A stretch of DNA of 64,000 nt, from positions 5,466 to 69,465 of the forward strand of contig CAZGAV010000010.1 in NCBI GenBank assembly GCA_964523575.1, given 5' to 3'. Made by a program: the position numbers and the translations under genes. This DNA comes from an uncultured Ignavibacteriales bacterium. GTDB taxonomy: Bacteria > Zixibacteria > MSB-5A5 > GN15 > JAAZOE01. Shown in pieces: positions 1,904 through 49,400 of the stretch. Position 1 is the stretch's first letter; every line of letters starts with the position of its first letter. Under the pieces are notes generated by a model that did no database searches, was not told the DNA's origin, and saw only the letters and a list, made by a program, of their open reading frames with translations.

Positions 1904-2043
1904 AGTCAACTACCGGCCGTCGGACATGGGGAACTCAGCTGACCGGGTTCGTATGATGAGAATTAATTTTCAATCGGGGGTTGTATTTGCAGACTGATCT
2001 TGCATATTATAGGGAAGAATTGACGGACTGGCAGGTACGAGAG

Positions 2044-3354
2044 ATGGAAAAAAAGCTCAGCCAGCTCATTTTCAACAGCATCAGTGACGGTGTTTTCACG
2101 GTCGATCGGAATTGTATTATCATGTCATTCAATAAATCGGCCGAGAAAATCACCGGTTTTATGGCGTCGGAGGCTGTTGGAAAACATTGTTTCGATATTT
2201 TCCGCACCGACCTTTGTCACCGGCAGTGCGCATTAAAGGATACCCTCAAGACTCATAATCAGATCCAGAACGCACGCGTGAAGATCATTACGCGGGACGG
2301 CCGGGAATTGCCGATCAGCGTGACGACGACTATGCTCAAAGACGACCAGGGCGAGATTATCGGCGCCGTCGAATTCTTCCGCGACCTGTCGGAAGTTGAG
2401 CATTTGCGCAAAACCCTCGATCAGAAGCGGGCCCTCGAGGATATCGTCAGTGTCAACCCGAAGATGCATGACTTGATAAATCTGCTGCCCGATGTCGCGG
2501 AATCCGAATGCAGCGTTCTCATCGAAGGTCCCAGCGGCTCCGGCAAGGAGCTTTTCGCTCAGGTTATTCATAACCTCAGTCCGCGTCGGTATGGCCCCTA
2601 TATCAAGATAAATTGCGCCGCACTGCCGGCCAGTCTTCTCGAATCGGAACTGTTCGGCTACGAAAAAGGCGCTTTTACCGATGCCAAGCGCGACAAGCCG
2701 GGGCAATTCAGCCTGGCCAACGGTGGCACCCTCCTGCTCGATGAAATCAGCGAGATGGATATTTCCCTGCAGGTCAAGCTGCTCCGCGTCCTCAATAATG
2801 GCGAATATCGGCCGCTGGGATCGACCAGGACATTTCACACCGATGCACGTATCATCGCCGCCACTAATGCGGATATGGGCGATTTTATCGCTGAGGGGAA
2901 ATTTCGGGAAGATCTTTACTACCGGATAAACGTGGTCAACGTAGCCATTCCTCCATTGCGCGAGCGGCCCGAGGACATTCCGCTTCTCGTGGATCATTTT
3001 CTGGAGGTGTACCGCAAGAAAAGTCACAAAACGATCGAACGGATTTCGCCCAAAGCGTTGTCCGTATTGCGCCGGCATTCATTCCCTGGTAACGTTCGAG
3101 AACTGGAAAACGCGGTCGAACACGCATTTGTCATGTGTCACGGCAACGAGATTCAGGTCGATCATCTTCCCCCGCATATTATAGCGGAGAGTATCCCCGG
3201 CCAGATAACAGCGTCGCGGGAGACCGGTGAGAAGGAGATCATTCAGGAAGCACTGCAGAGATATAACGGCAACAGGTCCCGTGCAGCGATCGAACTGGGT
3301 ATGCATCGATCGACGCTATGGCGGAAAATAAAAACGCTTGGGATAAAAATCTGA
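2044..3354 (+). CDS. sigma-54-dependent transcriptional activator (PAS sensor - AAA+ - Fis-type HTH)
   Basis: PAS region (LIFNSISDGVFTVD...ITGF), Walker A GPSGSGKE, GAFTGA-loop variant YEKGAFTDA, Walker B LLLDEI, and C-terminal HTH SRAAIELGMHRSTLWRKIK. The start is uncertain: ATG 2044 is preferred over TTG 1981, which abuts its putative RBS. Confidence 0.9.
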   Translation: MEKKLSQLIFNSISDGVFTVDRNCIIMSFNKSAEKITGFMASEAVGKHCFDIFRTDLCHRQCALKDTLKTHNQIQNARVKIITRDGRELPISVTTTMLKDDQGEIIGAVEFFRDLSEVEHLRKTLDQKRALEDIVSVNPKMHDLINLLPDVAESECSVLIEGPSGSGKELFAQVIHNLSPRRYGPYIKINCAALPASLLESELFGYEKGAFTDAKRDKPGQFSLANGGTLLLDEISEMDISLQVKLLRVLNNGEYRPLGSTRTFHTDARIIAATNADMGDFIAEGKFREDLYYRINVVNVAIPPLRERPEDIPLLVDHFLEVYRKKSHKTIERISPKALSVLRRHSFPGNVRELENAVEHAFVMCHGNEIQVDHLPPHIIAESIPGQITASRETGEKEIIQEALQRYNGNRSRAAIELGMHRSTLWRKIKTLGIKI

Positions 3355-3394
3355 TTGCGCCGGGGTGCGATGATTACCCGGTTGTGATAATCGT

Positions 3395-3418
3395 CTCGTG
3401 GACTCCACCACGAGTTTT
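3395..3418 (+). terminator. Rho-independent terminator candidate after the activator gene
   Basis: Stem CTCGTGG (3395-3401) / CCACGAG (3408-3414), 6-nt loop, then TTTT (3415-3418). It lies 41 bp after the stop at 3354. Confidence 0.5.
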
Positions 3419-3562
3419 CGGTCAGTTGCGTAAAAGATTGACTGAATATCTTTATAAGTGGCATGATAGAGCATGCAGCGATGCTCCGGCAACGCAATGC
3501 CGGGTTACCGTTTCCCTAAAAGTTCCTTGTCATTTGTGTCATATTTGTGCCCTCTCGCCAAT

Positions 3563-3598
3563 AAACCAGCTGCAAACAGACAAAACCAGCTGCAAACA
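3563..3598 (+). repeat. 16-bp direct repeat AAACCAGCTGCAAACA x2 (20-bp period)
   Basis: Identical copies at 3563-3578 and 3583-3598 in non-coding DNA. Confidence 0.6.
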
Positions 3599-3747
3599 AA
3601 CAAAAAATGGAAATCCCTTGTCCTGTTTTGACTTAAATGCTAATTGACGCCATTTCAATAGGTTACGAAAATCTCTTCCGGAGAATCCCAGCCTCTCCGC
3701 CAGTATCAGAAGATACTTTTTGGCTGTCGCGGGGGCAGAGGCCCCTC

Positions 3748-3820
3748 TTCTGCTGTCGCGTGGATGACCGGAGTTCCTACTTCAAAAGTAAAGTTCTATA
3801 ATTGTCCCAGCTTGCCCGCT
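3748..3820 (+). repeat. 73-bp perfect direct repeat, copy 1
   Basis: TTCTGCTGTCGCGTGGATGACCGGAGTTCCTACTTCAAAAGTAAAGTTCTATAATTGTCCCAGCTTGCCCGCT is identical to 3926-3998. Confidence 0.9.
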
Positions 3821-3925
3821 GCCAGAAGGCAGTTTTCGGCTGTCGCCATTATGACCTGACTATAATCCCAGAGTAACGAGAGTTCTATACTTGTCCCATC
3901 TTCCCCGACACGAATCCATCGTGTT

Positions 3926-3998
3926 TTCTGCTGTCGCGTGGATGACCGGAGTTCCTACTTCAAAAGTAAAGTTCTATAATTGTCCCAGCTTGCCCGCT
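3926..3998 (+). repeat. 73-bp perfect direct repeat, copy 2
   Basis: Identical to 3748-3820; the copies are offset by 178 bp. Confidence 0.9.
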
Positions 3999-4040
3999 CT
4001 TAGAATCACTTGTGAGCGTAGCGAATTAGTGATTCTTAGA
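3998..4040. other. Long imperfect hairpin at the boundary between the repeat array and the GIY-YIG unit
   Basis: Left arm TCTTAGAATCACT (3998-4010) pairs with right arm AGTGATTCTTAGA (4028-4040): 9 bp, one mismatch, then 3 bp, with a 17-nt loop. It lies immediately 5' of the sequence shared by both GIY-YIG copies (CCCTGAGCTTTAGCGA, 4041-4056). Confidence 0.6.
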
Positions 4041-4083
4041 CCCTGAGCTTTAGCGAAGGGCTGATTCTGTCGGGATTGCACTC

Positions 4084-4368
4084 ATGTGGTACATATATAT
4101 CCTGGAATGCCGTGACGGTTCCTATTACACCGGTGTCGCCAAAGACGTAAGAGCGCGGCTGAATAAGCATAATCCCGGCAAGGGCGCGAAATATACGCGG
4201 ATGAAGCGCCCGTGCACCATCATTTATGTCGAGGAACATCCGGATGAAAGCTCGGCACGCCGTCGTGAAATGGAGATCAAGGGCTGGCGGCGCGATAAGA
4301 AAGAAGGATTAATCCGTGGGTTTCCTTCGTCGGCCCTGGATGACCTCCTCAGGATCTCCGGGCAATAG
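4084..4368 (+). CDS. Small GIY-YIG nuclease superfamily protein (UPF0213/YhbQ-like), copy 1
   Basis: 94 aa. MWYIYILECRDGSYYTGVAKDVRARLNKHN...YTR...EIKGWRRDKK carries the GIY-YIG core (YIY...YYTG, R..RL..H, E..IK). 83 of 94 residues are identical to the ORF at 10345-10629. Confidence 0.9.
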   Translation: MWYIYILECRDGSYYTGVAKDVRARLNKHNPGKGAKYTRMKRPCTIIYVEEHPDESSARRREMEIKGWRRDKKEGLIRGFPSSALDDLLRISGQ

Positions 4369-4610
4369 CCCTCCGACGAATCCTACCTCCTCCGCCAGTA
4401 TCGGAAGATACTCTTTGGCTGTCGCGGGGGCAGGGCCCCTTTTCTGCTGTCGCATGGATGATCTCACAATATTCCCAGAGTAACCAAAGTTCGAAACTTG
4501 TCCCAGCCTCCCCGCTGCCAGAAGGCAGTTTTTGGCTGTCGCCATTATGACCTGACTATAATCCCAGAGTAACCAGAGTTCGATATTTGTCCCAGCTTTC
4601 TCCGCCACAT
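4369..4610 (+). repeat. Modular non-coding repeat array B (homologous to array A)
   Basis: Hairpins at 4398-4413 (AGTATC-GGAA-GATACT), ~4427-4439 (GGGGC...GCCCC) and 4516-4527 (TGCC-AGAA-GGCA). Each is followed by a T-run and CTGTCGC (4419-4425, 4447-4453, 4536-4542). The ~59-bp block 4536-4595 is near-identical to 3840-3898. Confidence 0.7.
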
Positions 4611-4646
4611 CATTTTCTAAGGCCACTCTTGACAAAAAAGGTCGCT

Positions 4647-4670
4647 GGACCAATTTAATATGTGGTACAT
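4647..4670 (+). other. Remnant of a GIY-YIG 5' end (GGACCAAT...ATGTGGTACAT) at the left edge of the cassette
   Basis: ATGTGGTACAT at 4660-4670 is identical to the first 11 nt of both GIY-YIG genes (4084-4094, 10345-10355). GGACCAAT at 4647-4654 recurs at 10321-10328, upstream of copy 2. After the 11-mer the reading frame diverges (MWYMSRRQ...). Confidence 0.4.
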
Positions 4671-4772
4671 GAGCCGGCGGCAGACCCGGCTGCGCAACTA
4701 TCTTGCGCCGCGCATCTTCAGCATCATGAATGCCACTCAACGGAAGGCGTCAATAATCTCGATATAAAATCA

Positions 4773-4801
4773 TTGACGTCGGCAATGCCTTTTTGTATAT
4801 T
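4773..4801 (+). promoter_or_regulatory. sigma-70-type promoter for the two-gene cassette
   Basis: -35 TTGACG (4773-4778), 17-nt spacer, -10 TATATT (4796-4801). It lies ~50 bp upstream of ATG 4854, which has an AGGTGA RBS. Confidence 0.55.
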
Positions 4802-4853
4802 ACTCTCAGGGAATAAAATCTCTTCAGGCATTTTCAACGTGGCAGGTGAAATC

Positions 4854-6665
4854 ATGTATAAAAATTCTTATTGGAAGAATAGGGGTAATCCGTGGGAATA
4901 TGATTCGGGTCCTCCGAAAAATCTATGTTGGCCGAGGTTATTTTCGGAGACGCCCAATTATCGCCGGCTTTCTCTGACGGCATTAGGCAGCGAGAAATTC
5001 AGGTGGCATTTCGGCCCGATGTATTTCCGCGGTCGAACGGGGGCCGGCAGAGTTAAAATTGTCATCATCGGTCAAGAAGGCGCGCAGGATGAGTGTCTTG
5101 CACACAGAGCATTTGTTGGCAGCACGGGAAGCAGGCTACAATATCTTCTTAATTTCATGGGGTTGGATTATTCCTATCTTTTCGTAAACACCTTCGTGTA
5201 CCCAATATACGGCCAATACGCCAGTTACTTCAAATGGCTGGCGCAAAATCTGGAGTCGCCGATTGTCCAGCATCGGCATGATATATTCAATTACATTCTG
5301 AAGAAAAACGATGTCCGGTTGGTTGTTGCGGTCGGGAAAGCCGCTGGAGAGTCGGTTATAACATGGGTAGAAAGCCGCGGCGGAACAGGCCCGGATGGTA
5401 CGGGTGATCTTTCAACCTGCAGCGGAAGTTTCCTCGATCCCAAGACCAGGATTGTCGGGGTTCGTCATCCGGGAGGGGCCAAAATCCCCGGAGAAATCGC
5501 CGAAATAAAACAGAGCTTTCAAGACGCCATAGACAAAATTAATACCTGGATTAAGCAAGATTCGGCCTGGTTGCCCCCCGACCCCGGAATGACAAGAGAT
5601 TTGAGTCTCCCATATTCATTCGGTAAAGCCGCCATTCCTTTTCGAGATTTGCCTTTTGGTATAACCTGGAGATTGGGAAAAGGCAGCACAACGAGTAACA
5701 GAAAGGATTCTCAACGATCGATACAATTGTTTTCGGCCAGCGGCAAATATAATAATTCTGGGGATAAAATCGTATACGCCGATTCAGCCCCCGGGACTGC
5801 GGAGGGGTATTCCGAAAAACCCGGTGATGTACCGTACGAACCGCAGGTTGCCGATTACAGGGATTACGATAAGGGGCCCGGCCTGTCGTTTGCACGCTTG
5901 TTCATGGGCGGCAAAAAGGATCTTGCCTGGCCGGATTTTTCGACCTTGGGAGTAAAATCTGACATATCGCTGGGCTATGGCCCGATTTATAGAGGTCGGC
6001 CAGGTAAAGCGACATTTCTCATCCTGGCAGATCAGCAATCTCATGATGATCTTTTTACCGGACGGGCCCTAACCGGTGAGTCCGGGCAGAGATTCCAGGC
6101 GTTTCTGAAAGCGATGGGTATTACCAGATCATATTGTATTCTGCGTATTTTGCCGGTGGACATGTTGGATCTCACTCCAGCCAAACGAAAATCCATAGTC
6201 ACCAATACGGAGATAGTAAAAATCTATGACGCCTTTCTTGACAAGATACTGGCCAAGAAGAAAACCAAATTGATATTAACTTTGGGTGAAATGTCGGCGA
6301 CATTGATTCAAAAATTGCAGACAGCGCCGATAGACGTCATAAATCTCCGCTCATGGCTTCAATCAGGGGCCCTGAGTGACTGGCAGAGTGCCATAAATAG
6401 CATCAAGACAAAGTCATATCCCAAAGATATTACCAATCCGTCATTTACATATAATGGCGGACGATGGCAAATACCAGGCTATGATTTGCCCTACGGGACA
6501 TTGAAATGGCTGGGCAGTTCGGGAGATCGGGCGCGAAGAGCCAAGGATAGTGCCGGGCAATGGTCAGCAGGATATTATAAACTATTCATGCCTCAATGGG
6601 CTTTCTCTCTGGCTCCTCCGCCGCTGTCCAATAGTGAGGCAAATTCCATAGCCAAGCATCCATAG
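4854..6665 (+). CDS. Protein with two tandem uracil-DNA-glycosylase-superfamily-like domains (function unknown)
   Basis: ORF 4662-6665 trimmed to ATG 4854 (AGGTGA 7 nt upstream; earlier codons overlap the promoter). Domain 1: VKIVIIGQEGAQDE..AFVGSTGSRL..LFVNTFVYP...VGVRHPGG mirrors UDG motif A (GxxPG..E...PFvG.aG), the N/F-containing strand and motif B (HPS). Domain 2: FLILADQQSHDDLFTGRALTGESGQRF...YCILRILP is a degenerate second copy. Fold call from motifs only. Confidence 0.55.
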   Translation: MYKNSYWKNRGNPWEYDSGPPKNLCWPRLFSETPNYRRLSLTALGSEKFRWHFGPMYFRGRTGAGRVKIVIIGQEGAQDECLAHRAFVGSTGSRLQYLLNFMGLDYSYLFVNTFVYPIYGQYASYFKWLAQNLESPIVQHRHDIFNYILKKNDVRLVVAVGKAAGESVITWVESRGGTGPDGTGDLSTCSGSFLDPKTRIVGVRHPGGAKIPGEIAEIKQSFQDAIDKINTWIKQDSAWLPPDPGMTRDLSLPYSFGKAAIPFRDLPFGITWRLGKGSTTSNRKDSQRSIQLFSASGKYNNSGDKIVYADSAPGTAEGYSEKPGDVPYEPQVADYRDYDKGPGLSFARLFMGGKKDLAWPDFSTLGVKSDISLGYGPIYRGRPGKATFLILADQQSHDDLFTGRALTGESGQRFQAFLKAMGITRSYCILRILPVDMLDLTPAKRKSIVTNTEIVKIYDAFLDKILAKKKTKLILTLGEMSATLIQKLQTAPIDVINLRSWLQSGALSDWQSAINSIKTKSYPKDITNPSFTYNGGRWQIPGYDLPYGTLKWLGSSGDRARRAKDSAGQWSAGYYKLFMPQWAFSLAPPPLSNSEANSIAKHP

Positions 6666-6678
6666 GAGGTACGCGCAA

Positions 6679-9600
6679 ATGGAGAAAATCAAATTGGGGG
6701 CAAATACCAAATATGCCCTCGAGGGTCGTGTCGTCTCTCTGGATGCAGAGTCGACAGTTTTCGAATCGGGAGTGATATATATTGAGGGTGATACGATTGT
6801 CGACGTGAGGAAGTCGTCGCAATCCCCTCCTCAGGGATTCACCAAGAAAGACATCATCAAAACCGGCGGAACCATCTATCCGGGTTTGATCGAGTTGCAC
6901 AATCATCTCAGTTATAATATCCTGCCTATGTGGGACGTGCCGAAGACGTTTTTCAATCGTGATCAGTGGCGAAGACACCCGGATTACAAGAAAAAAATGA
7001 CCGGTCCTATGCGGATCTTAGGGAAAATCGACGGTTACCTTCAAGCCATTGTCAGATATGTCGAATGCAAATTGTTATTTTCCGGGGTGACGTCGTCTCA
7101 GGGGATAACACTCTCCATCGCGGCCAAAATCCAGAAGTTGTACAAAGGGGTGGTCCGAAATGTCGAGCAGACAATAGATGATGATCTGCCCGGCGCTGAT
7201 ACCAGAATTGCCGATGTAGATGCAAAAGATGCGGCGCATTTTCAAAAGATACTGGAGAAGTGCAAGAACTGCTACTTAATACATCTGGCAGAAGGTGTCA
7301 ACACCAGCGCCAATAAACACTTTAAAGCGCTGCAAGTGTCCCCTGATAACTGGGCCATTACGGATAAACTGGCGGGGATACACTCGGTCGGATTATATCC
7401 CGAAGATTTTAAGGTCATGCGCGATCATAACGGTTCCATTATATGGTCGCCGATGAGTAATTTTCTCCTGTACGGAACAACGGCTGATATAAAATCGGCC
7501 AAGAAAAACGAACTATTGATCGGCATGGGATCCGACTGGTCAGCCAGCGGCAGCAAAAACCTGCTTTGCGAACTCAAAGTGGCTCATTTGTTCAATAAAA
7601 ACAATGGCAATCTATTTACCGACGAACAACTGATACGAACAGTGACAACCGACGCCGCAAAAATCCTGCACTGGGATAAAAAAATAGGAAGTCTCGAGAA
7701 AGGGAAAAAGGCGGATTTGATAGTCCTGAGGGGCAAGAAAGGGGAACCCTGCACCAATCTTATAAACTCCAACGAACATCAAATCATTCTTGTGGTTATC
7801 GATGGATGGCCAAGATTCGGTTACAAGCGCTTTTTGGGTAAATTTGACGTCACATTGGAAAAGGTAAGAATCGGCACCTATACCAGGTATATGAATCTGA
7901 AAAACGAATCGGAGAATATAATAGACATCGACGTTTCATTTAAGGATGCGCAAAAGAAATTGATTAAAGGTATGCGAGACCTTCCTCAGCTTGCCAAACA
8001 ACAGGAGGACTACGACAGCGGCATTTTCGCCGGCACAACCTTTATCTCGGAACACCAATCTGACGTTAGTATATTTTTGGAGCATGAAGACCATGAGGGC
8101 AGCTCTCAGCGACATCATTTTGGTGCGGAATTTTCCTGTGGAGGGCTCTTCGATCAGGGCGCGACCGTCTATTCCGAGATATTGGAGGGCCTGGAGCTCG
8201 ATCCGCCGACCATCGCAGATGACCATCGTTATTTTGACAAACTGGCCAGACAAATGAACCTGCCTGATTACATAGCCGCCGGGCTGCCGGGATACTATGG
8301 AAGAAAAGTCACAATATCAGCTGCCGACAGCGTGTCGCGTAACAAAAGCTATCTAAAGCGGTCGAATTTCGATTCAATTCAATCCTTGGCCACCTTCCGC
8401 ATGACACCGGGATATCTGCACCCAAATGACCGACTGACCATTATCGATCAGGCAATATCCATACTAAAAAATGCCTATGTTCATTTGCCTTTGAAAAGGG
8501 CCAGACATGCGTCCAACCCCCTGAAGCGGCTGGATTTATTGCGCGATGCGGTGCAATATGATGATGATTATAATTCCGAGTTGGAGTTTCACTCCGAGAT
8601 AATCCAGATATTTAATTCATTACGGGATCTGCATACGGTCTACCATTTGCCTGCGCCATTCAATGACAAGGTTGTCTTTGTCCCCTTCATGATTGAGGAA
8701 TGCTACGAAGGCGAAGAACCCAAATACATCATTTCGCGAATAATGAGCGATGATGTTCCCTCGAGTTTTAAGATCGGTGTCGAGGTCACCCATTGGAATA
8801 ATATACCTATCAGGAGGGCTATCGCCTCCAATGGGGATCGCTATGCGGGCAGCAATAAGGCGGCCAGATTTGCAAGAGGTCTGAATTCGATGACCTTCAG
8901 GCACCTGGAGGTCATGCTGCCGCCGGAAGAAGAATCAGTCACCCTTAATTATCGAGACCCCGGGTCTGGTAAGAGGACGAAGGGCATAAAGAGGAGAATC
9001 AGCTTCCCTTGGTTGGTGGGATCGGTCAACTCAGAATACATGCTGAACATGGAAAACGGCTGGCGTGCGGCGCATCAAACGTTGTCCGGCTATGATTATA
9101 ACACTCTTTTGGTTCAGAACACACGAAAGGCCTTTTTTGCCCCCGGCCAATTATATAAGCGCAAGCTTTCTGAGGGCAGCAACAAACGCGAAAATCCTTT
9201 CTATGGATTTGAAGAGACGCGTTTCCCCAATCACTTCCGCTGCAAAAAAGTAACGCATGAGGGAAAATCATACGGTTATATCCGCATTTTCTCCTTTGAC
9301 ACCGACAACCCTTTGGGGTTGGCCGAAGAATTCGCTCGGCTGCTTCACAGGATGCCGCCGACGGGAGTGATTCTGGATGTTCGCAATAATGGAGGCGGCC
9401 ACATCCGGGCGGCCGAGTATATGCTGCAAACTCTTTCGAAAAAATATATCAACACGGAAGCGGCGCAGTTTATCAATTCCGACTTCATTGAATATTTATG
9501 CAGGGTTCATTCCCCTTCGAATATAAATGAGCAGTTGGATTTGTCCAGATGGCGAGATTCCCTGGATGAGTTAAGAAATACCGGGGAAGATTATAGTCAG

Positions 9601-10044
9601 GGATTTCCGCTGACACCGCGGTCCCTGTTGAAACGATTTCGGTCGAATCGAGGTTACAAGCTGGTATTGATCACCGACGCCTTATGCTATAGCGCCACCG
9701 ATATATTTGCTTCAGGATTTCAAGATAATAAACTCGGTACAATACTGGGTATACATGAAAACACCGGTGCGGGTGGCGCCAACGTGTGGACTCATTCGAT
9801 CCTTTACGAGCTGACCCTGGATGTGAATGGGGATTCACAGTATTTCGAACCCCTCCCTTGTGGCGCCAATTTCACTGTAGCCATACGCCGCATGTTGCGG
9901 ACCGGCGACAATCAGGGCCTGCCTTTGGAGGATCTAGGTGTCGAACCGGATTATATCCACCGGATGACAAAAGCCGATTTGCTGGGTAAAGACCATGCAA
10001 ACAGGGATCTTATTGCCAGAGCGTGTGAAATTCTTCGTGAGTGA
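6679..10044 (+). CDS. Fusion protein: N-terminal COG0402-type (nucleobase/nucleoside deaminase-like) amidohydrolase and C-terminal peptidase S41 (tail-specific/tricorn-like) domain
   Basis: RBS TAGGAGGT precedes ATG 6679. Amidohydrolase motifs: PGLIELHNHLSY (HxH), IHLAEG (HxxE), HSVGL, SPMSNFLL, GMGSDWSAS, GSLEKGKKADLIVL. S41 motifs: DLHTVYHLP helper region, GVILDVRNNGGGH, LVLITDALCYSATDIFASGF (Ser nucleophile context), TILGIHENTGAGGANV. 1121 aa, with no signal peptide evident. Confidence 0.75.
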   Translation: MEKIKLGANTKYALEGRVVSLDAESTVFESGVIYIEGDTIVDVRKSSQSPPQGFTKKDIIKTGGTIYPGLIELHNHLSYNILPMWDVPKTFFNRDQWRRHPDYKKKMTGPMRILGKIDGYLQAIVRYVECKLLFSGVTSSQGITLSIAAKIQKLYKGVVRNVEQTIDDDLPGADTRIADVDAKDAAHFQKILEKCKNCYLIHLAEGVNTSANKHFKALQVSPDNWAITDKLAGIHSVGLYPEDFKVMRDHNGSIIWSPMSNFLLYGTTADIKSAKKNELLIGMGSDWSASGSKNLLCELKVAHLFNKNNGNLFTDEQLIRTVTTDAAKILHWDKKIGSLEKGKKADLIVLRGKKGEPCTNLINSNEHQIILVVIDGWPRFGYKRFLGKFDVTLEKVRIGTYTRYMNLKNESENIIDIDVSFKDAQKKLIKGMRDLPQLAKQQEDYDSGIFAGTTFISEHQSDVSIFLEHEDHEGSSQRHHFGAEFSCGGLFDQGATVYSEILEGLELDPPTIADDHRYFDKLARQMNLPDYIAAGLPGYYGRKVTISAADSVSRNKSYLKRSNFDSIQSLATFRMTPGYLHPNDRLTIIDQAISILKNAYVHLPLKRARHASNPLKRLDLLRDAVQYDDDYNSELEFHSEIIQIFNSLRDLHTVYHLPAPFNDKVVFVPFMIEECYEGEEPKYIISRIMSDDVPSSFKIGVEVTHWNNIPIRRAIASNGDRYAGSNKAARFARGLNSMTFRHLEVMLPPEEESVTLNYRDPGSGKRTKGIKRRISFPWLVGSVNSEYMLNMENGWRAAHQTLSGYDYNTLLVQNTRKAFFAPGQLYKRKLSEGSNKRENPFYGFEETRFPNHFRCKKVTHEGKSYGYIRIFSFDTDNPLGLAEEFARLLHRMPPTGVILDVRNNGGGHIRAAEYMLQTLSKKYINTEAAQFINSDFIEYLCRVHSPSNINEQLDLSRWRDSLDELRNTGEDYSQGFPLTPRSLLKRFRSNRGYKLVLITDALCYSATDIFASGFQDNKLGTILGIHENTGAGGANVWTHSILYELTLDVNGDSQYFEPLPCGANFTVAIRRMLRTGDNQGLPLEDLGVEPDYIHRMTKADLLGKDHANRDLIARACEILRE

Positions 10045-10105
10045 CGTTGTCGGTGTAGATATACCAGACCTCGTGAGACATATTGTGTTTTATTGTAATT
10101 CACAA

Positions 10106-10330
10106 ATGGAGGTTCGTTCGTTGAAGCATCAGATTCGATCAGCGAGGGTGAAAAGGCTGGTATCGGAGTTGGCGGAGGCTTTAGGCAGCGATGCCATGGC
10201 GTACCGTGACTTTGAAATCCCGCGCTCGACAATCTATCGGTGGAAGAAAGCCTATGTCGAGAAGGGGGTAGACGGTCTGGTTCAGAGAAAGCCAATCGCC
10301 AGGACCCTGAGCTTTAGCGAGGACCAATCG
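10106..10330 (+). pseudogene. Truncated transposase N-terminal helix-turn-helix remnant
   Basis: ...DFEIPRSTIYRWKKAYVEKGVDGLVQRKP... matches the HTH found at the N-terminus of IS481/IS630/IS3-type transposases. No catalytic domain follows, and the frame runs into the GIY-YIG unit. Confidence 0.45.
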
Positions 10331-10344
10331 ATGCGGAGCATCTT

Positions 10345-10629
10345 ATGTGGTACATATATATCCTGGAATGCCGTGACGGTTCCTATTACACCGGTGTCGC
10401 CAAAGACGTAAGGGCGCGGCTGGATAAACATAATTCCGGCAAAGGGGCGAAATATACGCGGATGAAGCGCCCGTGCACCATCGTCTATGTCGAGGAACAT
10501 CCGGATGAAAGCTCGGCGCGCCGTCGTGAGCTGGAAATAAAAAGCTGGCGGCGCGATAAGAAAGAAGAATTAATCCGCGGGTTTCCTTCGTCGGTCCCGG
10601 ACGGCCTCCCCAGTATCTCCGGGCAATAG
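10345..10629 (+). CDS. Small GIY-YIG nuclease superfamily protein, copy 2
   Basis: 94 aa, with 83/94 identity to copy 1. Shared flanks: CCCTGAGCTTTAGCGA (10305-10320 vs 4041-4056) and the 3' ...ACGAATCC.ACCTCCTCC. Confidence 0.9.
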   Translation: MWYIYILECRDGSYYTGVAKDVRARLDKHNSGKGAKYTRMKRPCTIVYVEEHPDESSARRRELEIKSWRRDKKEELIRGFPSSVPDGLPSISGQ

Positions 10630-10654
10630 TCCATCAACGAATCCAACCTCCTCC

Positions 10655-10674
10655 GGGGGCAGAAGCCCCTTTTT
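10655..10674 (+). terminator. Short GC hairpin plus T-run after GIY-YIG copy 2
   Basis: GGGGGC-AGAA-GCCCC followed by TTTTT. This is the same hairpin type as 3732-3745 and 4427-4439. Confidence 0.45.
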
Positions 10675-43427: not shown

Positions 43428-46400
43428 ATGATGCGGACAACAATAGTAATAACAATGCTTCTCATGCTTGCCGCCGCAGTAGCGCCGGCGACAGGTTATT
43501 ATGTGTCGCCCGATGGCGATGATGCCAACGATGGCCTGACTCCCGGCGCCGCCTGGAAGGACATCGATAACGGCGATGTCAAAGGTCTTCTGGCGCCGGG
43601 CGACGTCGTCAATATCCTGCCGGGACTATATTCCACCACCGCAACTATCATGCTGAGCACCTCCGGCACCGAAACGCTTCCGATTACTTATCGAGGACCG
43701 GACAGCGGCGGAGTCATCGTCGATATGGGCGGGATCTCGGATGAAATCATCCAGATCGACGGCCATCATGTCAATCTGATCGGCCTGACCCTGACCAATT
43801 GCGGCCGCCACGCCATCCGCATCTACGGCGATACCTGTCTGGTCACCGAATGCTTTCTCCATGACTATGGTCTTCAGGGTATCGATGTTAACGGCGACGG
43901 CAATTTGATACAGAAAAATATCATGTATAACGCCGGCCAATGCGGTATTACCAACCGCTCCGGGGCCACCGGCAACAAATTTTATGGCAATACCATTTAC
44001 AATTGCGGCTATCAGGGTATCTGGATCGATTACACTGTCTATTCCTGCCGGGCTTTCAATAATGACATCGTCTTGTGCGACGAAGGTATTTCGGGGGCAT
44101 CATGGAATAAGTGCGGCTTTAACAACATCTGGAATTGCGCTTCCGGCAGCTACGTCGGTGGCGTTTATGATTCGGCCGGCGGTCTCGCAGTCGATCCTTT
44201 ATTCATGAATGCGGCGGGGGCCGACTTCAACCTGCAATCAGGTTCTCCGGTCATCAACAAGGGCATCGATCTCGGCTATTCATATTATGGCTATGGGCCC
44301 GATCTGGGGGCTTTGGAATACCTTCCGGAAATTCAACGAACCTATTGGGTTTCGCCGACAGGCAATGATCTGGCCGATGGATTTTCCGCAGCCACCGCCT
44401 GGAAATCTATTGATAATGGCGAGAAAAGGGGGATCCTGGTACCGGGCGATACTATCAATATCCTCCCGGGATTATATCAGCCGGCGGCGACGCTGGAAAT
44501 GATATCGAGCGGTTCGCCGACAGCGTCCATTGTTTATCGCAAAATCGGCAAGGCTTCGGCCAAAATCGACGGTCGCGCCACCATCAACACGCTGATATTG
44601 ATCGAGGGAGATTATGTCGAGATCCATGGTCTGGAATTGACCAACAACAAAGATCACGGAATTCATATCAAGGGTGACCACGGTCTAATTACCGGCTGTT
44701 ATATTCACGACATCGAAAATTTTGGAATCCGGCTCGAAGGCGATTCTATTCTGGTATTGAAAAATGTCATCGCTTTCACGCGCGACGACGGGATCCGAAA
44801 CGAAGACGCCTCTTACTATTGCCGCTACTACGGCAACACCATTTATGGTTGCACCAATGACGGCATGGAGCTCAAGAAGGGATCTTCCCGGGCTTTCAAC
44901 AACATCGTGGCCCAAAATGCGGTCGGTATCAAAGCCTCATCGACCGATATTTGCGCTTTCAACAATGTCTGGGGCAATCCGGGCGGCAATTACAGCGGGA
45001 CCGTCGATTCCGCCGGCGGTATTTCGGTCCTGCCGAAATTCGTCAATTCCGCCGCCGGACGTTATGACCTTCTGGCTTCCGCCTCCGAAATTGACGCCGG
45101 GCTGGACCTTGGTTATCCCTACAACGGGGCCGCCCCGGATATCGGCGCCTTTGAAAAATACAATGTCTATTATGTCAACCCCAGTGGTGACGATCTTCTT
45201 AGCGGCCGCACGCCCGACAGCGCCTGGGCCTACATCGATAACGGCGATTCTCTGTTATTTCCCGGCGACACCGTCTATGTTATGCCCGGCGCCTATACCA
45301 ACCGAGTCATAATTACGGACAGCGGTCTCGTTGATGACAGAATTGCCTATGTCGGCGTCAGGGATTCCTGCCTGATCGAAACGTCCGAAGCCGCCAACGC
45401 CGTCAGTCTTTTATCCGAATACATCCTCTGGTCGGGTATCAGCGTTCACAACGCCATATCCGACAACATGTATATCAACGGCGGCAACAATCGAATTGAG
45501 GCCGCCACCTTCGGGAGCGGAGGATCCTACGGCATTGATATCGCCGTCGGGCAAAACAATAACATCGTCCATAGTGTTTTTTCGAAAAACGCCCTGGCCA
45601 ATATCCACATTCACGACGACTATAATGCCATCTACAACTGTTCTTTTCTCGACTCCGCCGGCTATGGAATCGACGCTCAGGGGTATCAGCACCAGACCAT
45701 AACCAACTGCATCTTTCAAGGGACAAACGGCGAAGACGTGGCCGTGATTACCAATGCAACCTCATCGTTGACCTATTGCCTTTTCTATAATAACCTGGCT
45801 TCCGCCAGCGGCGGCATCGGCATGGGAACGGGATGTTTCGTGGCCGACCCGTTATTCATAGACCCTGCCGGCGGTAATTTCAGATTGCAGTCGCATTCCC
45901 CGGCCATTGACGCCGGGGTGTATGTTGGATTGCCGTTTGAGGGGTCGGCTCCCGATCGCGGCGCCTATGAAACCGGAATTCTCGATCAGTTGACGATTTC
46001 GCCCGTGTATGAATCGCTGAACGCCGATTCCCAGTATCGATTTGAAACCCTCGGATGGGACAGCGTTGGCTATCCGGCCGATCCCGGACATATAACCTGG
46101 TCGCATACCTTCGCCACCGGTAATATAAATGGCGCCGGTCTTTTTCAGCCGCAGATGATCGGAACAGGTGAAATTATCGCTGAATCGGATATCAATCTCA
46201 TCTCCGCGGCCTCGCCGACCATGACGGTGATTCCGGGCGCTTTGGATAATTTTGTTATAACCCCCAGCCGCGATACGATCTCGGCCGATGACACCAGACT
46301 TTTCACCGTCGCCGGATACGATCAGTGGGGCAATGAGGTGATCGAAACCGGATTACTGAACTGGCAGGTGATGAACAATATCGGCGTCATAGACGGCGAC

Positions 46401-49400
46401 GGACTATTCGACGCCCAGCATGCCGGCATTGGTTTCATTCGGGTTTCCAGTGAACTTGGACCGACCGAAATATCCGATACCATCATCGTCATCCCGGGTG
46501 AGATCGCCGCTATCGACGTCACTCCGGCCACAATTATTGTCGTCGAGGATTCTTCATATCAGTATTCGGCCTCCGGGATCGATGCCGATCTCAATCTGGT
46601 CAGGGACCTGACCGATTCGGTCACCTGGGCGACCACCGACCCCGGCGGCAATATCAGTCCATCCGGGCTCTATACGGCCGGCAACAGCCCGTCGCCGCCT
46701 GTGTATTCGGTCACAGCGACCTACCAGGGGCTCATGAGTGATTCCGGTCAGGTATCAGTCATCAGCAATGGTTTGATCAATTATGTCCGGATCGAATGGC
46801 AGAACGGCACGCCATTCACTGACACCGTCCTGACCACCGATATCGACTCGACCCGGCTTTATTGCCGCGGATATACATCGGGCGACGTTTTACTGGGTGA
46901 TGTTTCCGTGATCTGGTCGGTTAGCGGCGGCGATTCCATCGGCGTCTTTTATCCGTCCGCCGGAGTGACCAGTACTCTGGAACTGCGTCGGCCGGGAACC
47001 GGTCGGCCGGTCGCCACCTACTCGGCTTTGATCTCCGATACCGGCGGTACTATTGGGTGCGCGGCCGGAATTCCGGATGTCATCGATGTCTCGCCCGATT
47101 CGGCTGTCATATCCGCCGACAGCAGTATGCAGTTTACCATGATTCTCTTCGATTCCGACGGCAATGTCACCACCGCCGGTGAAACTCCCGGCTGGCAGGT
47201 CATCGGCGGTATAGGAATCGTCTCGCCTGAGGGGAATTTTATCCCCTCGCAAATCGGGACCGGATACATCGTCGGATATGCGGGCGAGACCGCTGATACG
47301 GTCGGACCGATAACGGTGACGGCCGGATCCCTTGACCACATAACCGTGATTCCCGATTCGGCTTTGATTTCAAGCGATTCCGTTCTTCAATTCGCCGTCA
47401 CCGGTTATGATGCCGAAGATAATCTCTGCGATCCCGGCGCTGTCACATGGTCGGTGACGTCGCCGCTTGGAGTCATCGATTCCACCGGATTGTTCAATCC
47501 CACAATTGTCGGTTTGGCCCGGATAGTCGCCTCGTCCAGCCTGGGTCCGGTCGATACCTCCGCCTATTTGGAAGTGACCCCCGGCCGCCTGAATGCTCTG
47601 CAGATTATCCCCGATTCGGCCACGCTCACCACCGACAGCACTCTGATCTTTACCGCTGCCGGGCGGGATGCCGACGGCAACCCGACCTCGACCGGCACGA
47701 TTGTCTGGTCGGTCACCGGCGGCATCGGCGATATCAATTCCTCCGGTCAGTTTACGCCTTTGACTATCGGAAGCGGCCGCATCGTGGCCCTCAGCAATAT
47801 CGACGGCGTCTGCGATACCACCGCTGAAGTGCAGGTCAATCCGGGCTTGCTGGATATAATGGTCATCACGCCCGACTCGGCTCGATTACAGATCGGCGAT
47901 ACGCTTGATTTCGCGGCCACCGGGTATGACGCTCGGTACAACATTACCGACGTCGGTAACTTGACCTGGTCGGTGCTGGGCGTGATAGGCCAAATCGATA
48001 ATAACGGCCGCTTTGTGGCCCAATCCCGCGGCGAGGGCAATATTAAAGTTGTCAGCGACATTAATTATGTGGAGGCGATCTCGGGCGCCGTCGTGGTCGA
48101 GGCTCTTCAACTAACGGCCATCCCGCTTGGCAACAGCTATATCCGGCCCCGCGAATCATCGGTTCCGGTTCTCGCCTTCCGAATCGACAATTACTATATA
48201 GAAAATAAATCGCTCACGGGCTTGACGATTCGGGACATCAGCCGGGGGGATGGCAGTACCGAAGAAATGGCGGCCAATCTTGACCGAGTCTATCTCTATA
48301 TCGACCGGGATGATGATTCCACCCTTTCTCCCGGCGACAGCCTGGCGGCGTCGGCCGCCTATTCCACGGGAATAACCGATTTGACTTTCCCCGGAATCGT
48401 GGTACCCGGAGGGTCGGGACTCAATTTCATAATCACCGCCGACGTCAGCCTTTATCCGCATGACGGCGATTCGATCGATGTTTATTTTGCCACCGACAGC
48501 GATCTGCAAACCAAAGAAATCCTCTCGATCATCGGACAACCGTCCATAAATTCCGTCGGCTACGGCATTATCAACGGCCTGATCGCGGAACAGATAACCG
48601 TCAGCGCCTCGGGCTCCGACATCATCCATCCCGCGGAGACTTTATATAATTGCTTGACGCTCGATATCCCCCGAGACGGGTATGCCTCCGATATCCTGGA
48701 AGTCATGAGTATCGCCAATGCCGGCACCGCCGGACCCGCTGATATCGACTCCCTCGTGCTCTATGCCGATGACGGCAATAATGTATGGGGCGGTCCGGAC
48801 GAAGAAAACCGCCTGGGACGACCGGCCTTCACCGGCAATCGCTGGACTATCAGCGGCCTGGACCTGCCTCTGGTATCGCCTCTGACCCGGTTGTACATCG
48901 CCGCGACGCCGTCGGAATATCCGGAAAACGGATCGACCATTGCTTTGTACATCCCCGTCAACGGTCTCGAAATGTCATCCGATAATGACGGCCCTTATGA
49001 TTTCCCGACCATAGCCGTCGATACGCTTGTCATCGAAACCGACGAAAAAGTTACCATCACCACAGGCGATATTCCTTTCCGCGAACTGATTCCGGGACAA
49101 CTCACCGGGCCTTTGACCGGTTTCGAACTGACCAACCGGTACAACAATGAACTGGCCCTCGACAGCCTGACCTGCCGGGTGTTGACTTATGATCCCCAGG
49201 GAGCCACTCAGGAACAACTCGACAGCCAGATTGACAGCCTGCTCTTGTATATCAATCGCGACGGCGATTACTCGCATCTGGGAGCCGCCGATTCTTTGAT
49301 CTCGACGACAGTGCCGGTCGGGGGACAGGTCGTGTTCATAACCGAAAATTTGATCATTCCCCCGGACGGCGGCCGGCTGAGTTTGTCGGTGGCGGCGTTT

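Follow-up and report, generated by a model that had tools for sequence, protein, structure and literature searches.

The window analyzed here (the whole 64,000-nucleotide stretch of DNA) contains a two-gene operon that is horizontally acquired in this host. The first gene encodes a tandem protein of the uracil-DNA glycosylase (UDG) superfamily, and the second fuses a COG0402-type amidohydrolase to an S41 serine peptidase. Together the two genes make up a self-contained module, capable of horizontal transfer and found again in many bacterial phyla. It appears to be undescribed, and may act on DNA bases that are unusual or carry adducts.

The operon and its surroundings

Gene 1 (4854-6665, forward strand) encodes 603 amino acids. 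Its start is placed at ATG 4854 rather than at GTG 4662, because every homologue in the family alignment begins there; a ribosome-binding site (RBS), AGGTGA, lies at 4844-4849. The tight spacing claimed in the original prediction is confirmed: just 13 nt separate gene 1 from gene 2 (6679-10044, forward strand; 1121 residues). The gene 2 RBS read from the sequence, AGGAGG at 6664-6669, overlaps the gene 1 TAG stop codon (6663-6665), which suggests translational coupling. The sigma-70-like promoter candidate (TTGACG-17-TATATT, forward strand, 4773-4801) is indeed present, with 10 of 12 matches, and is well placed for the operon, with the start of gene 1 lying 53 nt downstream. However, the region holds 12 such sites against 11.3 expected from shuffled sequence; the count is at chance level, so it is position alone that argues for this candidate.

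The cassette is AT-richer than its surroundings, as was predicted, although the contrast first drawn by hand (37-40% against 60% GC) was overstated. It has 47.8% GC against 54.7 ± 1.0% in non-overlapping 5.2-kb windows, and is itself the 5.2-kb window of lowest GC; its GC3 is 50-54%, against 62-72% in adjoining genes. Rows of 60 nt at or below 40% GC make up 17% of the cassette rows, and neighboring genes have 52-58% GC. The lower GC of the cassette fits recent transfer into this host.

Two GIY-YIG units flank the cassette as direct repeats on the forward strand: left, 4039-4394 (gene 4084-4368; GC 53.7%, GC3 63%); and right, 10303-10655 (gene 10345-10629). Their placement was correctly described, but "near-identical" was too strong, as they share 88% identity over 357 aligned nt (91% ungapped over 300 nt). 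Each encodes a 94-residue GIY-YIG protein (Pfam E=4e-21 and 9e-22) that is a minimal domain without a DNA-binding extension, and the window holds these two copies only. Between the gene 2 stop codon and the right unit lies the predicted transposase remnant (approximately 10167-10350, forward strand), an IS630/IS481-type helix-turn-helix (HTH) fragment. Its matches are weak (Pfam HTH_28 E=1.8e-6; NCBIfam IS630 23.5 bits against a cutoff of 100) and cover just 50-60 or so residues of the N-terminal HTH. The fragment is probably the scar of an acquisition event.

An AT-richer cassette bracketed by direct repeats, with a transposase fragment at its right edge, recalls a single mobile element spanning all of 4041-10674, in which the GIY-YIG genes would be functional parts, serving in mobility or as nuclease partners of the system; homing endonucleases include GIY-YIG domains. 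This is nonetheless very improbable. The degree of identity between the two copies and the lack of a DNA-binding extension both count against it, and the units match the host, not the cassette, in GC and GC3. Neither an empty site nor a second insertion was recovered, metagenome contigs from the same population having the same arrangement. Moreover, a GIY-YIG gene occurs within 10 kb of the pair at none of 82 other loci, and at no other locus does a transposase fragment adjoin it. The GIY-YIG units are thus local bystanders outside the conserved module, and neither they nor the transposase fragment stand as parts of the system.

Gene 1: a tandem UDG protein

The proposal of two UDG-superfamily folds in tandem is well borne out. 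Pfam UDG matches two stretches of gene 1. The sole solved structure matched by sequence is PDB 5gn2 (Blr0248; E=1.6e-18), and 5gn2 is also the top Foldseek match (E=4e-11) for the gene 1 AF2 model (pLDDT 78, pTM 0.80). The two halves align to one another (hhalign probability 99.2%, E=1.6e-19, 27% identity over 216 columns). Judged from its sequence, gene 1 is an internal duplication of a BdiUng/Blr0248-type UDG unit, in effect a fused pseudo-dimer.

The N-half (4854-5813, forward strand; residues 1-320) has a complete BdiUng-like base pocket. Motif A reads GQEGAQDE (Q74, E75, A77, and E80); the other pocket residues are F87, G89, F110, N112, and His205 (in HPGG). The 5gn2 alignment and the published work (PMC5449639) map these onto BdiUng Q56, D57, A59, E62, L69, G71, M92, N94, and H168. 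All are invariant in 121 sequences except position 75, where 114 have Glu and 7 have Asp. Most of the family therefore has Glu in place of the BdiUng catalytic Asp, in GQEGA rather than GQDPA, so the predicted glycosylase activity is not guaranteed. The C-half (5814-6662, forward strand; residues 321-603) is a second UDG unit with a different pocket (ADQQSHDD; D393, Q394, D399, R404, R431, and P434), equally conserved in the 121 sequences, that has no motif-B histidine.

The family is small and unusually uniform, with 45-69% identity across phyla. Its proteins are mostly basic (pI 6.0-9.7, median approximately 8.9, in 15 sampled), and the gene 1 and gene 2 proteins both lack signal peptides and are predicted to be cytosolic. 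In a distant tandem-UDG subfamily, the protein carries fused helix-hairpin-helix (HhH) DNA-binding motifs, and one locus of this subfamily has a gene for a SprT-like protein (DNA-protein-crosslink protease family) 18 nt downstream.

Gene 2: an amidohydrolase-peptidase fusion

The predicted fusion in gene 2 is likewise upheld, by Pfam, PDB profiles, and Foldseek. Three segments follow one another on the forward strand: the COG0402-type amidohydrolase (6679-8007; residues 1-443; Pfam Amidohydro_1 E=6e-16); a mostly disordered linker, by prediction (8008-8373; residues 444-565); and a CPAF-like S41 serine peptidase (8374-10044; residues 566-1121; Pfam Peptidase_S41 E=2.6e-15). The AF2 model (pTM 0.49) gives no confident inter-domain geometry.

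The amidohydrolase is of the metal-dependent type that includes nucleobase deaminases (cytosine deaminase among them) and TRZ/ATZ triazine hydrolases. It has the complete catalytic set HxH (H74, H76), HxxE (H202, E205), H235, and D286; all of these, together with S1005 of the peptidase, are invariant in 121 sequences. Profile and structural matches in the PDB are to AtzA/TrzN and to MTA/SAH, 8-oxoguanine/isocytosine, and guanine deaminases. NCBIfam deaminase matches all score far below their equivalog cutoffs (at most 74 bits against 320-780), which precludes assigning a substrate. A family-specific insert (residues ~76-175) follows the HxH strand.

The linker has pLDDT below 50 at residues 445-517 and 537-561, and holds just 4 of the 169 near-invariant gene 2 positions. 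Homologues without the S41 part align to approximately residue 540, and so retain its first part. The S41 domain contains D900-x-R-x-NGGG, a candidate nucleophile S1005 (in YSATD), a PDZ insert, and the invariant residues H638, H652, and E1084. It matches NCBIfam CPAF (E=1.7e-13), and its top Foldseek match is mature CPAF (3dor; E=5.5e-21, TM(target) 0.65).

Conservation of the pair

Among 82 loci drawn from at least eight phyla, 77 have a gene 2 homologue in the flank, which confirms that the two genes are conserved as neighbors. The homologue is directly downstream on the same strand at 58 of 73 loci, with a median gap of approximately 54 nt. Most lineages fuse the amidohydrolase and the S41 peptidase; Actinobacteria encode them in two overlapping genes, and Acidobacteria-type loci lack the S41 part. 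Identities of gene 1 and gene 2 co-vary over loci (Spearman rho 0.56). Homologues of gene 2 also adjoin single-domain BdiUng-type UDGs (motif GQDPATNE; 5gn2 E=5.5e-39) in three further contexts, with different gene orders.

Could the two simply be functionally unrelated neighbors, a repair glycosylase beside a peptide-catabolism enzyme? Each protein's family can function alone. The synteny data already contradict this reading, to which we give almost no credence: adjacency recurs in otherwise unrelated neighborhoods across those phyla, and it survives changes in gene order, gene fission, and a swap to single-domain UDGs. The RBS that overlaps the gene 1 stop codon points the same way here.

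The neighborhood comparison found no third gene conserved with the pair, whether transporter, regulator, or further catabolic gene; the heterogeneous neighbors do not form a consistent salvage or peptide-catabolism operon. Conserved adjacency, the UDG fold of gene 1, operon context, and windowed composition were the four points named beforehand on which the finding could fail; all were examined, and none went against it. The searchable literature yielded no description of the pair, in keeping with the original prediction that no such system had been described.

The prediction of a mobile-looking, AT-richer island is partly right: the cassette is compositionally foreign in this host, but its AT-richness is local and not a property of the family. 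In a comparison of 60 loci, the AT content of the pair does not exceed that of the flanking DNA (mean +1.4% GC). In about ten species of Ilumatobacteraceae (Acidimicrobiia), it occupies a conserved chromosomal position and has ameliorated to host GC.

Possible functions

Tentatively, the three activities may act in sequence on an amino- or N-substituted DNA base; both this order and the kind of substrate are pure inference. The base in question would bear an exocyclic amino group or an N-linked substituent, for example an amine or aminoacyl decoration, or the peptide left over from a DNA-protein crosslink. The S41 domain would trim the peptide part. The amidohydrolase would then swap the ring -NH2 or -NHR for =O by hydrolysis. 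The reaction that defines COG0402 is of this kind: C to U, 5hmC to 5hmU, G to xanthine, N6-alkyl-A to hypoxanthine. Finally, the gene 1 N-half would excise the oxo-base, leaving ordinary base-excision repair to finish, and the C-half may hold the substrate or the partner enzyme.

The BdiUng pocket of the N-half and the complete catalytic set of gene 2 argue for such deaminate-then-excise chemistry. Deamination turns C, 5hmC, and G into uracil, 5-hydroxymethyluracil, and xanthine, respectively, and this is the product class of COG0402. BdiUng excises these three bases from single-stranded DNA, and its small Ala "gate" (A77 in gene 1) admits 5-substituted and purine bases (PMC5449639). The mostly basic gene 1 proteins, together with the HhH fusions and SprT-like neighbor of the distant subfamily, count for DNA as the substrate. 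Several points count against the proposal: the S41 domain is dispensable in some lineages; Glu replaces the catalytic Asp, within GQEGA; the gene 2 model leaves the inter-domain geometry uncertain; and DNA-repair neighbors are few (one RecJ/UvrD context, and dnaE2 in a single lineage's synteny), with the SprT-like gene beside a distant paralogue only. Moreover, every characterized COG0402 enzyme, to our knowledge, acts on free bases, nucleosides, nucleotides, or small heterocycles.

That family knowledge raises the alternative, which we consider unlikely, that the pair breaks down or detoxifies a small molecule. This would be a nucleobase or nucleoside derivative in free form, perhaps with a peptide attached, such as a peptidyl-nucleoside antibiotic or a modified nucleoside released when RNA or DNA is turned over. 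Here the peptidase would remove the peptide, the amidohydrolase would deaminate the base, and gene 1 would act on a nucleoside or nucleotide by cleaving its N-glycosidic bond, or would free a base from DNA for the deaminase to destroy. The enzymes that top the structural matches, AtzA/TrzN and the deaminases, fit such a role, as do the cytosolic location predicted for both proteins and the carriers, which are heterotrophs chiefly from soil and sediment. Two contexts contain genes of purine or nucleoside catabolism: xanthine dehydrogenase and a CDA-type deaminase directly upstream (locus L003), and a nucleoside hydrolase and Bmp transporter protein 5-7 kb away (L093). However, the pair is conserved with no transporter, regulator, or further catabolic gene; distant paralogues of gene 1 are fused to DNA-binding motifs; and no UDG-fold enzyme is known to us with a substrate other than DNA. 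Nor does "excise, then deaminate" fit the known substrates of BdiUng (PMC5449639), because the BdiUng-type pocket takes oxo-bases without an amino group.

The original prediction also named a defence-like system as a candidate. In that case the pair would recognize and destroy modified phage DNA, deaminating or de-decorating non-canonical amino- or amino-acid-decorated bases and then excising them, by analogy with the Brig1/Brig2/Dag glycosylases or with APOBEC-UNG; alternatively, gene 1 would be a sensor, and gene 2 a deaminase/protease effector. Precedents exist for both folds. RADAR RdrB is an amidohydrolase-fold deaminase in defence. The distribution of the pair is patchy and transfer-shaped, and the subclade of the studied cassette has approximately 48-53% GC in hosts of 40-54% GC. 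In this host the cassette is AT-richer and adjoins a transposase scar, and TIR, caspase, or toxin-antitoxin neighbors occur at a few loci (L048, L005, and L093). UDG-fold glycosylases, for their part, are proven defence enzymes (PMC11078745; bioRxiv 10.1101/2025.10.29.685425).

The broader survey did not bear this out, and we regard an anti-phage function as improbable. PADLOC models gave no defence match for either protein or for the window's neighbors, just generic AAA+/HTH matches. No copy of the pair was found in 2.9 million viral contigs, 50,697 phage genomes, or 72,556 plasmids. The 125 immediate neighbors at other loci are heterogeneous, response regulators being commonest, with no defence family represented more than three times; no consistent defence-island context was seen across loci. 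Sequence uniformity, together with synteny and amelioration in the Acidimicrobiia, is atypical of arms-race genes, and the GC comparison over 60 loci also weighs against immunity. Because the family is uniform, syntenic, and ameliorated, without defence matches or phage or plasmid copies, we consider a housekeeping or repair role likelier than immunity.

Comparison with known systems

By sequence and fold, the closest relative of gene 1 is BdiUng (Blr0248; PDB 5gn2; Chembazhi et al. 2017, PMC5449639). The N-half shares its pocket residues, including the Ala gate, and the two units in one gene 1 chain correspond to the BdiUng homodimer; the single-domain UDG partners of gene 2 homologues are bona fide members of the BdiUng family. 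Gene 1 differs in its tandem fusion, in motif A (Glu for Asp and Gly for Pro), in having Phe for Met92, and in the remodeled pocket of its second unit, which has no motif-B histidine. It differs too in its obligate pairing with an amidohydrolase/S41 gene, which PMC5449639 does not mention.

Gene 2 shares with the COG0402 enzymes (AtzA, TrzN, and the guanine, 8-oxoguanine/isocytosine, and MTA/SAH deaminases) a TIM-barrel with the full HxH/HxxE/H/D set, implying a hydrolysis that replaces an exocyclic group of an N-heteroaromatic ring. It is set apart by its sub-cutoff scores, its insert, its protease fusion, and its DNA-glycosylase-like partner. The C-domain resembles CPAF and other S41 peptidases (tricorn, Ctp/Prc) in the D-x-R-x-NGGG and Ser motifs and the PDZ insert. 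Unlike these, it is predicted to be cytosolic, is fused behind an amidohydrolase, and does not have the Lys of the Ctp Ser-Lys dyad; from its sequence, the presumed partners of the Ser are H638 or H652, and E1084.

The anti-phage DNA glycosylases Brig1, Brig2, and Dag1/2, of the UDG fold or another, remove modified bases, and in this they resemble the class of gene 1; like the cassette, they are horizontally mobile, often in AT-rich acquired regions. They consist of one gene each and are enriched close to mobile elements and defence loci, whereas the pair (compared with Brig1 and Brig2 by description) has two genes, three predicted activities, and no detected defence association.

Two further likenesses are functional analogies only, in folds unrelated to the gene 2 domains. 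In vertebrate immunity, the CDA-fold AID/APOBEC deaminase makes an oxo-base, which the UDG enzyme UNG removes. Similarly, the zinc metalloprotease SPRTN/Wss1 trims a DNA protein adduct before downstream repair.

A tandem glycosylase fold

Gene 1 (4854-6665) encodes a protein of 603 residues with two uracil-DNA glycosylase (UDG) folds in tandem, as the original prediction proposed. Pfam identifies the UDG superfamily (PF03167) in two stretches, and structural comparison agrees. An AlphaFold (AF2) model that draws on 15 homologues has reasonable confidence (pLDDT 78, pTM 0.80), and its top 30 Foldseek matches in the PDB are all UDGs: 5gn2 is the best, followed by UdgX and the family-4 UDGs. The 5gn2 structure is that of Blr0248, or BdiUng, from Bradyrhizobium diazoefficiens. 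This is also the only solved protein matched by the gene 1 sequence in a phmmer search of the PDB (E=1.6e-18), with gene 1 residues 45-178 aligned to BdiUng residues 28-156.

The N-half (residues 1-320) and C-half (321-603) are homologous by profile-profile comparison (hhalign probability 99.2%, E=1.6e-19), which makes gene 1 an internal duplication of one BdiUng-like unit. The two units pack confidently in the AF2 model. Because BdiUng is a homodimer (PMC5449639), gene 1 looks like such a dimer fused in a single chain.

The published BdiUng pocket comprises Q56, D57, P58, A59, E62, L69, G71, M92, N94, and H168 (PMC5449639). Transferred through the phmmer alignment, its equivalents in the N-half are Q74, E75, G76, A77, E80, F87, G89, F110, N112, and H205, all invariant or nearly so in 121 family members. 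Position 75 is Glu in 114 of the 121 and Asp in the other 7, which argues that the function of this acid is kept. A small "gate" Ala in BdiUng admits 5-hydroxymethyluracil and xanthine besides uracil (PMC5449639). The C-half pocket reads ADQQSHDD plus R431 and has no histidine. Across the same 121 sequences this set is as invariant as that of the N-half, which makes it a second, different site rather than a decayed copy. Gene 1 proteins have no signal peptide, and most of the 15 sampled are basic (pI 6.0-9.7, median about 8.9).

An amidohydrolase tethered to a protease

Gene 2 (6679-10044) encodes 1121 residues. Matches to Pfam, NCBIfam, PDB profiles, and known folds all uphold the predicted fusion of a COG0402-type amidohydrolase to an S41 peptidase. 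The amidohydrolase occupies the first 443 or so residues (Pfam Amidohydro_1, 59 bits; cutoff, 25). Its best matches, by NCBIfam, PDB profile search, and fold, lie in the branch of TRZ/ATZ, guanine-deaminase, 8-oxoguanine/isocytosine-deaminase, and MTA/SAH-deaminase enzymes, with AtzA, TrzN, and guanine deaminase among the fold matches. The HxH, HxxE, His, and Asp residues by which this branch is defined (H74, H76, H202, E205, H235, and D286) do not vary across 121 homologues. None of the substrate-specific (equivalog) cutoffs in NCBIfam is approached (the best scores are 73.6 bits versus 540 for TRZ/ATZ, and 71 versus 375 for guanine deaminase), so the substrate cannot be read from family models.

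A linker predicted to be disordered (residues 445-561) leads to the S41 peptidase, which accounts for the C-terminal 555 residues (Pfam Peptidase_S41, 56.8 bits; cutoff, 24). The closest fold is that of chlamydial CPAF (E=5.5e-21). Invariant features include the NGGG motif, D900/N904/G906/G907, and the nucleophile motif at S1005 (YSATD), along with H638, H652, and E1084, which are candidates for the His/Glu catalytic partners known from CPAF and tricorn. The position that holds Lys in the Ser-Lys dyad of Ctp/Prc-type proteases has none (sequence TGAGGAN). In the predicted model of the full protein (pTM 0.49) the inter-domain geometry is not reliable.

Conservation of the pair

Full-length relatives of gene 1 number in the hundreds, at 45-69% identity. 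A scan of one genome per species, covering 185,579 species, found at least 143 stretches matching gene 1. Carriers are foremost the Acidimicrobiia, and also occur in the Bacteroidota, Planctomycetota, Campylobacterales, Gammaproteobacteria, Chloroflexota, Acidobacteriota, and Gemmatimonadota; nearly all are uncultured, one exception being Pseudozobellia thermophila DSM 19858. The family is small: only 535 related clusters emerged when 1.84 billion cluster representatives were searched exhaustively.

The two genes are conserved as neighbours well beyond the window, with a gene 2 homologue in the flank at 77 of 82 loci. Where its position could be scored, it immediately follows gene 1 on the same strand in 58 of 73 cases (median gap about 54 nt); elsewhere it is convergent or upstream. 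Moreover, the identities of gene 1 and gene 2 co-vary across loci (rho 0.56). These comparisons contradict the view that the two are merely coincidental neighbours, a reading to which we give almost no credence. Clustering of every ORF in the 82 loci revealed no third conserved gene, only antisense artefacts and synteny confined to the Ilumatobacteraceae.

The S41 part is fused to the amidohydrolase in most lineages. In many Actinobacteria it is a separate gene, such that an amidohydrolase of about 520 aa and an S41 protein of about 620 aa are encoded with overlapping stop and start codons. At Acidobacteria-type and some other loci it is missing altogether. (Loci listed with gene 2 split or S41 missing are L024, L037, L041, L042, L044, L051, L052, L064, L069, and L070; and L018, L020-L022, L027, L049, L071, L074, L078, and L081.)

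Searching with gene 2 retrieved three further contigs, in which an amidohydrolase::S41 homologue (42-45% identity) lies beside a single-domain, BdiUng-type UDG of 312-319 aa (L095:10644-11588, L096:5828-6766, and L097:3935-4894). Gene order differs among the three, and L097 comes from a bin assigned to the Hermodarchaeia (Asgard archaea). Motif A in the single-domain partners is GQDPATNE or GQDPSTDE, and one of these proteins matches BdiUng over nearly its full length (E=5.5e-39). The association is thus between the BdiUng class and the hydrolase/protease, and the tandem protein represents one architecture. A helix-hairpin-helix motif suspected by eye in the N-termini of the single-domain proteins gained no support from Pfam.

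On one Chloroflexi-like metagenome contig (L092:8001-10347), an intact gene 1 is followed by an rve_3 transposase fragment in the place of gene 2. This arrangement suggests that the partner was lost through insertion.

The cassette in the window

All features listed in the original prediction were found, where it placed them or a few bases away. Gene 1 and gene 2 are co-directional and 13 nt apart, with the stop codon of gene 1 overlapped by an AGGAGG site. Alignment of the family fixes the gene 1 start as the ATG at 4854, with AGGTGA upstream, and rules out the GTG at 4662. The promoter proposed for the operon (4773-4801) is present and well placed, matching the consensus at 10 of 12 positions, although such sites are no more numerous in this region than in shuffled sequence. 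A search for sigma-54 promoters found none upstream of the operon and fewer matches in the window than expected by chance, and Rfam and tRNA scans of the flanks gave no match.

Direct repeats flank the pair, each encoding a GIY-YIG protein of 94 aa (Pfam E about 1e-21): a left unit (4039-4394) and a right unit (10303-10655), the sole two copies in the window. Described as near-identical, they are clearly related but more diverged than that, with 88% identity over 357 aligned bases (91% over 300 without gaps). A transposase remnant was correctly placed at the right edge. It is a short N-terminal helix-turn-helix fragment of IS630/IS481 type (10167-10350), situated between the gene 2 stop codon and the right GIY-YIG unit, which it abuts, and inside an ORF (9995-10411) that overlaps the gene 2 end. 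The fragment is probably the scar of an acquisition event.

Cassette GC content is 47.8%, the minimum in the window, versus 54.7 +/- 1.0% in other 5.2-kb windows of the 64 kb; GC3 is 50-54% in the cassette and 62-72% in neighbouring genes. The AT-richness first noted is real, but the contrast is smaller than a hand count had indicated. Comparison across 60 loci reveals no excess of AT in the pair relative to its flanks (mean difference +1.4% GC). Within the subclade to which the window's pair belongs, its GC content remains at about 48-53% in hosts of 40% and 54% GC alike, whereas in Actinobacteria it matches the host (64-72%). Such a distribution points to recent transfers within one clade and to prolonged residence in another, and the cassette seen here has arrived recently.

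By contrast, both GIY-YIG units resemble the host in GC and GC3, and no GIY-YIG gene lies near the pair at any of the 82 other loci. These units are bystanders. The idea of a composite mobile element bounded by them has not survived: the repeats are too diverged, the transposase is represented only by its helix-turn-helix fragment, and the flanks recur at 0 of 82 loci. With the comparative data against it, we judge such an element highly improbable. A search with the exact GIY-YIG proteins for an empty site or alternative context returned only short contigs from the same population, identical in arrangement.

Several other features of the window were recorded. The left GIY-YIG unit splits an array of direct repeats of about 89 nt (3677-4007 and 4372-4608). 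The repeat units are 67-100% alike, each ending in a small GC hairpin and then a T run, and the blocks share 83% identity over 235 nt. The repeats match nothing in Rfam, show no sign of folding into a structure, and are absent beside the right GIY-YIG copy and elsewhere in the window. Just upstream of the array, the end of an unassigned 109-aa ORF (3318-3647) contains 2.2 copies of a 20-nt tandem repeat (AAACCAGCTGCAAACAAACA, 3563-3605). A near-consensus sigma-54 element (TGGCATAACACTTGCA, 278-293, one mismatch) at the start of ORF 289-1305 lies about 1.7 kb upstream of a sigma-54 activator gene (1981-3354) and is unrelated to the cassette. Finally, a PorV/PorQ-family gene (53585-55612) comes directly after a 3386-aa ORF (43428-53588), an arrangement that hints at a host in, or borrowing from, the type IX secretion-bearing FCB group. 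For the IMP dehydrogenase, used as a marker of the host, the nearest named matches are 65-67% identical and come from Bacillota.

A possible route for base processing

In the reactions of COG0402 enzymes, oxygen takes the place of an amino, alkylamino, or chloro group that is exocyclic to an N-heteroaromatic ring. With bases, this chemistry converts cytosine to uracil, 5-hydroxymethylcytosine to 5-hydroxymethyluracil, guanine to xanthine, and N6-substituted adenine to hypoxanthine. BdiUng excises uracil, 5-hydroxymethyluracil, and xanthine from single-stranded DNA (PMC5449639). Since these substrates are COG0402 product bases, and since the N-half keeps the BdiUng pocket, the product class of one enzyme would be the substrate class of the other. 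A PDZ-bearing protease on a flexible linker makes sense if the base substituent is, or ends in, a peptide.

This suggests a tentative model of sequential processing, which we favor with less than even confidence. The S41 protease would trim the peptide; the amidohydrolase would hydrolytically remove the N-linked remnant from the base; the gene 1 glycosylase would excise the resulting oxo-base; and ordinary base-excision repair would follow. Targets would be DNA-protein or DNA-peptide crosslinks, or other bulky adducts at exocyclic amines. The weak point is the second step, as we know of no enzyme from this amidohydrolase branch that acts on a base within DNA. These functions we infer from family knowledge and synteny.

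A stronger claim would be that of an unrecognised DNA repair (or DNA-targeting) pathway with three parts acting jointly: an amidohydrolase that strips an amino, alkylamino, or peptidyl substituent from a base in DNA; a tethered CPAF-like protease that trims the crosslinked protein; and a BdiUng-class glycosylase that excises the uracil-, xanthine-, or hypoxanthine-type base. That all three hold together seems to us unlikely.

A distant tandem-UDG subfamily, about 30% identical, bears on the substrate. Its members (P0292, P0295, and P0296; L088:1180-5801, L089:3293-7886, and L091:6486-10145) have a lipoprotein-like signal sequence together with helix-hairpin-helix or lamin-tail domains, and are apparently secreted. 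A metagenome scan with a five-sequence alignment found four loci, none of the four with a gene 2 homologue. A SprT-like/DUF2786/DUF7168 gene lies 18 nt downstream of the tandem-UDG gene in L088; the L089 copy has a convergent NADAR-HAD gene and, upstream, a transposase. SprT-like proteins belong to a crosslink-protease family. Both the helix-hairpin-helix fusion and the SprT-like neighbour favour the view that the glycosylase-like partner acts on DNA.

Genomic neighbours and competing explanations

An anti-phage system directed against modified DNA would be chemically as coherent as sequential processing, and has precedents in Brig1, Brig2, and Dag. Contextual support, however, is lacking. Gene 1, gene 2, and the GIY-YIG proteins have no match at E<=0.1 in PADLOC v2.0 (including RADAR RdrB), and the window neighbours give only generic AAA+ and HTH matches to defence models. 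The 125 immediate neighbours at other loci, considered without a control set, are heterogeneous: response regulators are commonest, no defence family recurs, and TIR, caspase, AbiEi, and helicase matches are few (two of the three TIR proteins share one locus). Relatives of gene 1 are absent from 2.9 million viral contigs, 50,697 phage genomes, and 72,556 plasmids. We therefore regard the anti-phage explanation as doubtful. A housekeeping role is more likely than immunity, given how uniform the family is, how stably it is positioned in the Ilumatobacteraceae, and that no defence signal is seen.

Other neighbours are occasional: xanthine dehydrogenase and a CDA-type deaminase; nucleoside hydrolase and Bmp; RecJ, a PD-(D/E)XK nuclease, and a UvrD-type helicase, convergent and just downstream in L095; and dnaE2 within the Ilumatobacteraceae synteny. 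These recur too rarely to decide function. Two purine-catabolism contexts, along with the known activities of amidohydrolases, fit a small-molecule pathway acting on a nucleobase, nucleoside, or peptidyl-nucleoside. For such a pathway, the UDG-fold protein would have to work on something other than DNA, or else free a base that pockets of the BdiUng type are not known to accept, and we think the pathway improbable.

Relation to known systems

Every domain can be recognised as belonging to a known superfamily. Literature searches turned up no account of the tandem protein, of the amidohydrolase::S41 fusion, or of the two as a pair. The biochemistry of BdiUng-type glycosylases dates from 2017; their gene context was not discussed, nor was a physiological role found (PMC5449639). 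That the class, single or fused in tandem, nearly always has a deaminase-type amidohydrolase with a tethered protease encoded next to it offers a testable lead to that role. Environmental bacteria widely carry this compact module, and its presence in at least one cultured strain, P. thermophila DSM 19858, makes experiments feasible.

In bacteria, crosslink proteolysis and the steps downstream are poorly understood. The sequential model, if true, would reveal a new way in which bacteria clear N-adducted bases or DNA-peptide crosslinks, and would extend amidohydrolase chemistry to DNA substrates; an amidohydrolase acting on a base in DNA would be the first case for the deaminase branch of its superfamily. 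The chance that the module is a new DNA-processing pathway is low but real in our estimation, and such a pathway would give the orphan BdiUng class a physiological role. Should the function instead be immunity, the module would add a multi-enzyme form to the glycosylase defences discovered recently.

BdiUng itself provides the closest comparison. The N-half retains the equivalents of H168, the catalytic or leaving-group His, and of pocket residues Q56, A59, E62, G71, and N94 (H205, Q74, A77, E80, G89, and N112, respectively), whereas the C-half has R431 in the Asn position and no His. Motif A, which in BdiUng reads GQDPA and includes the catalytic Asp (D57), is GQEGA in the N-half and ADQQS in the C-half. 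This mismatch with the literal motif places gene 1 in a tandem sister subfamily of the BdiUng class, rather than among BdiUng orthologues.
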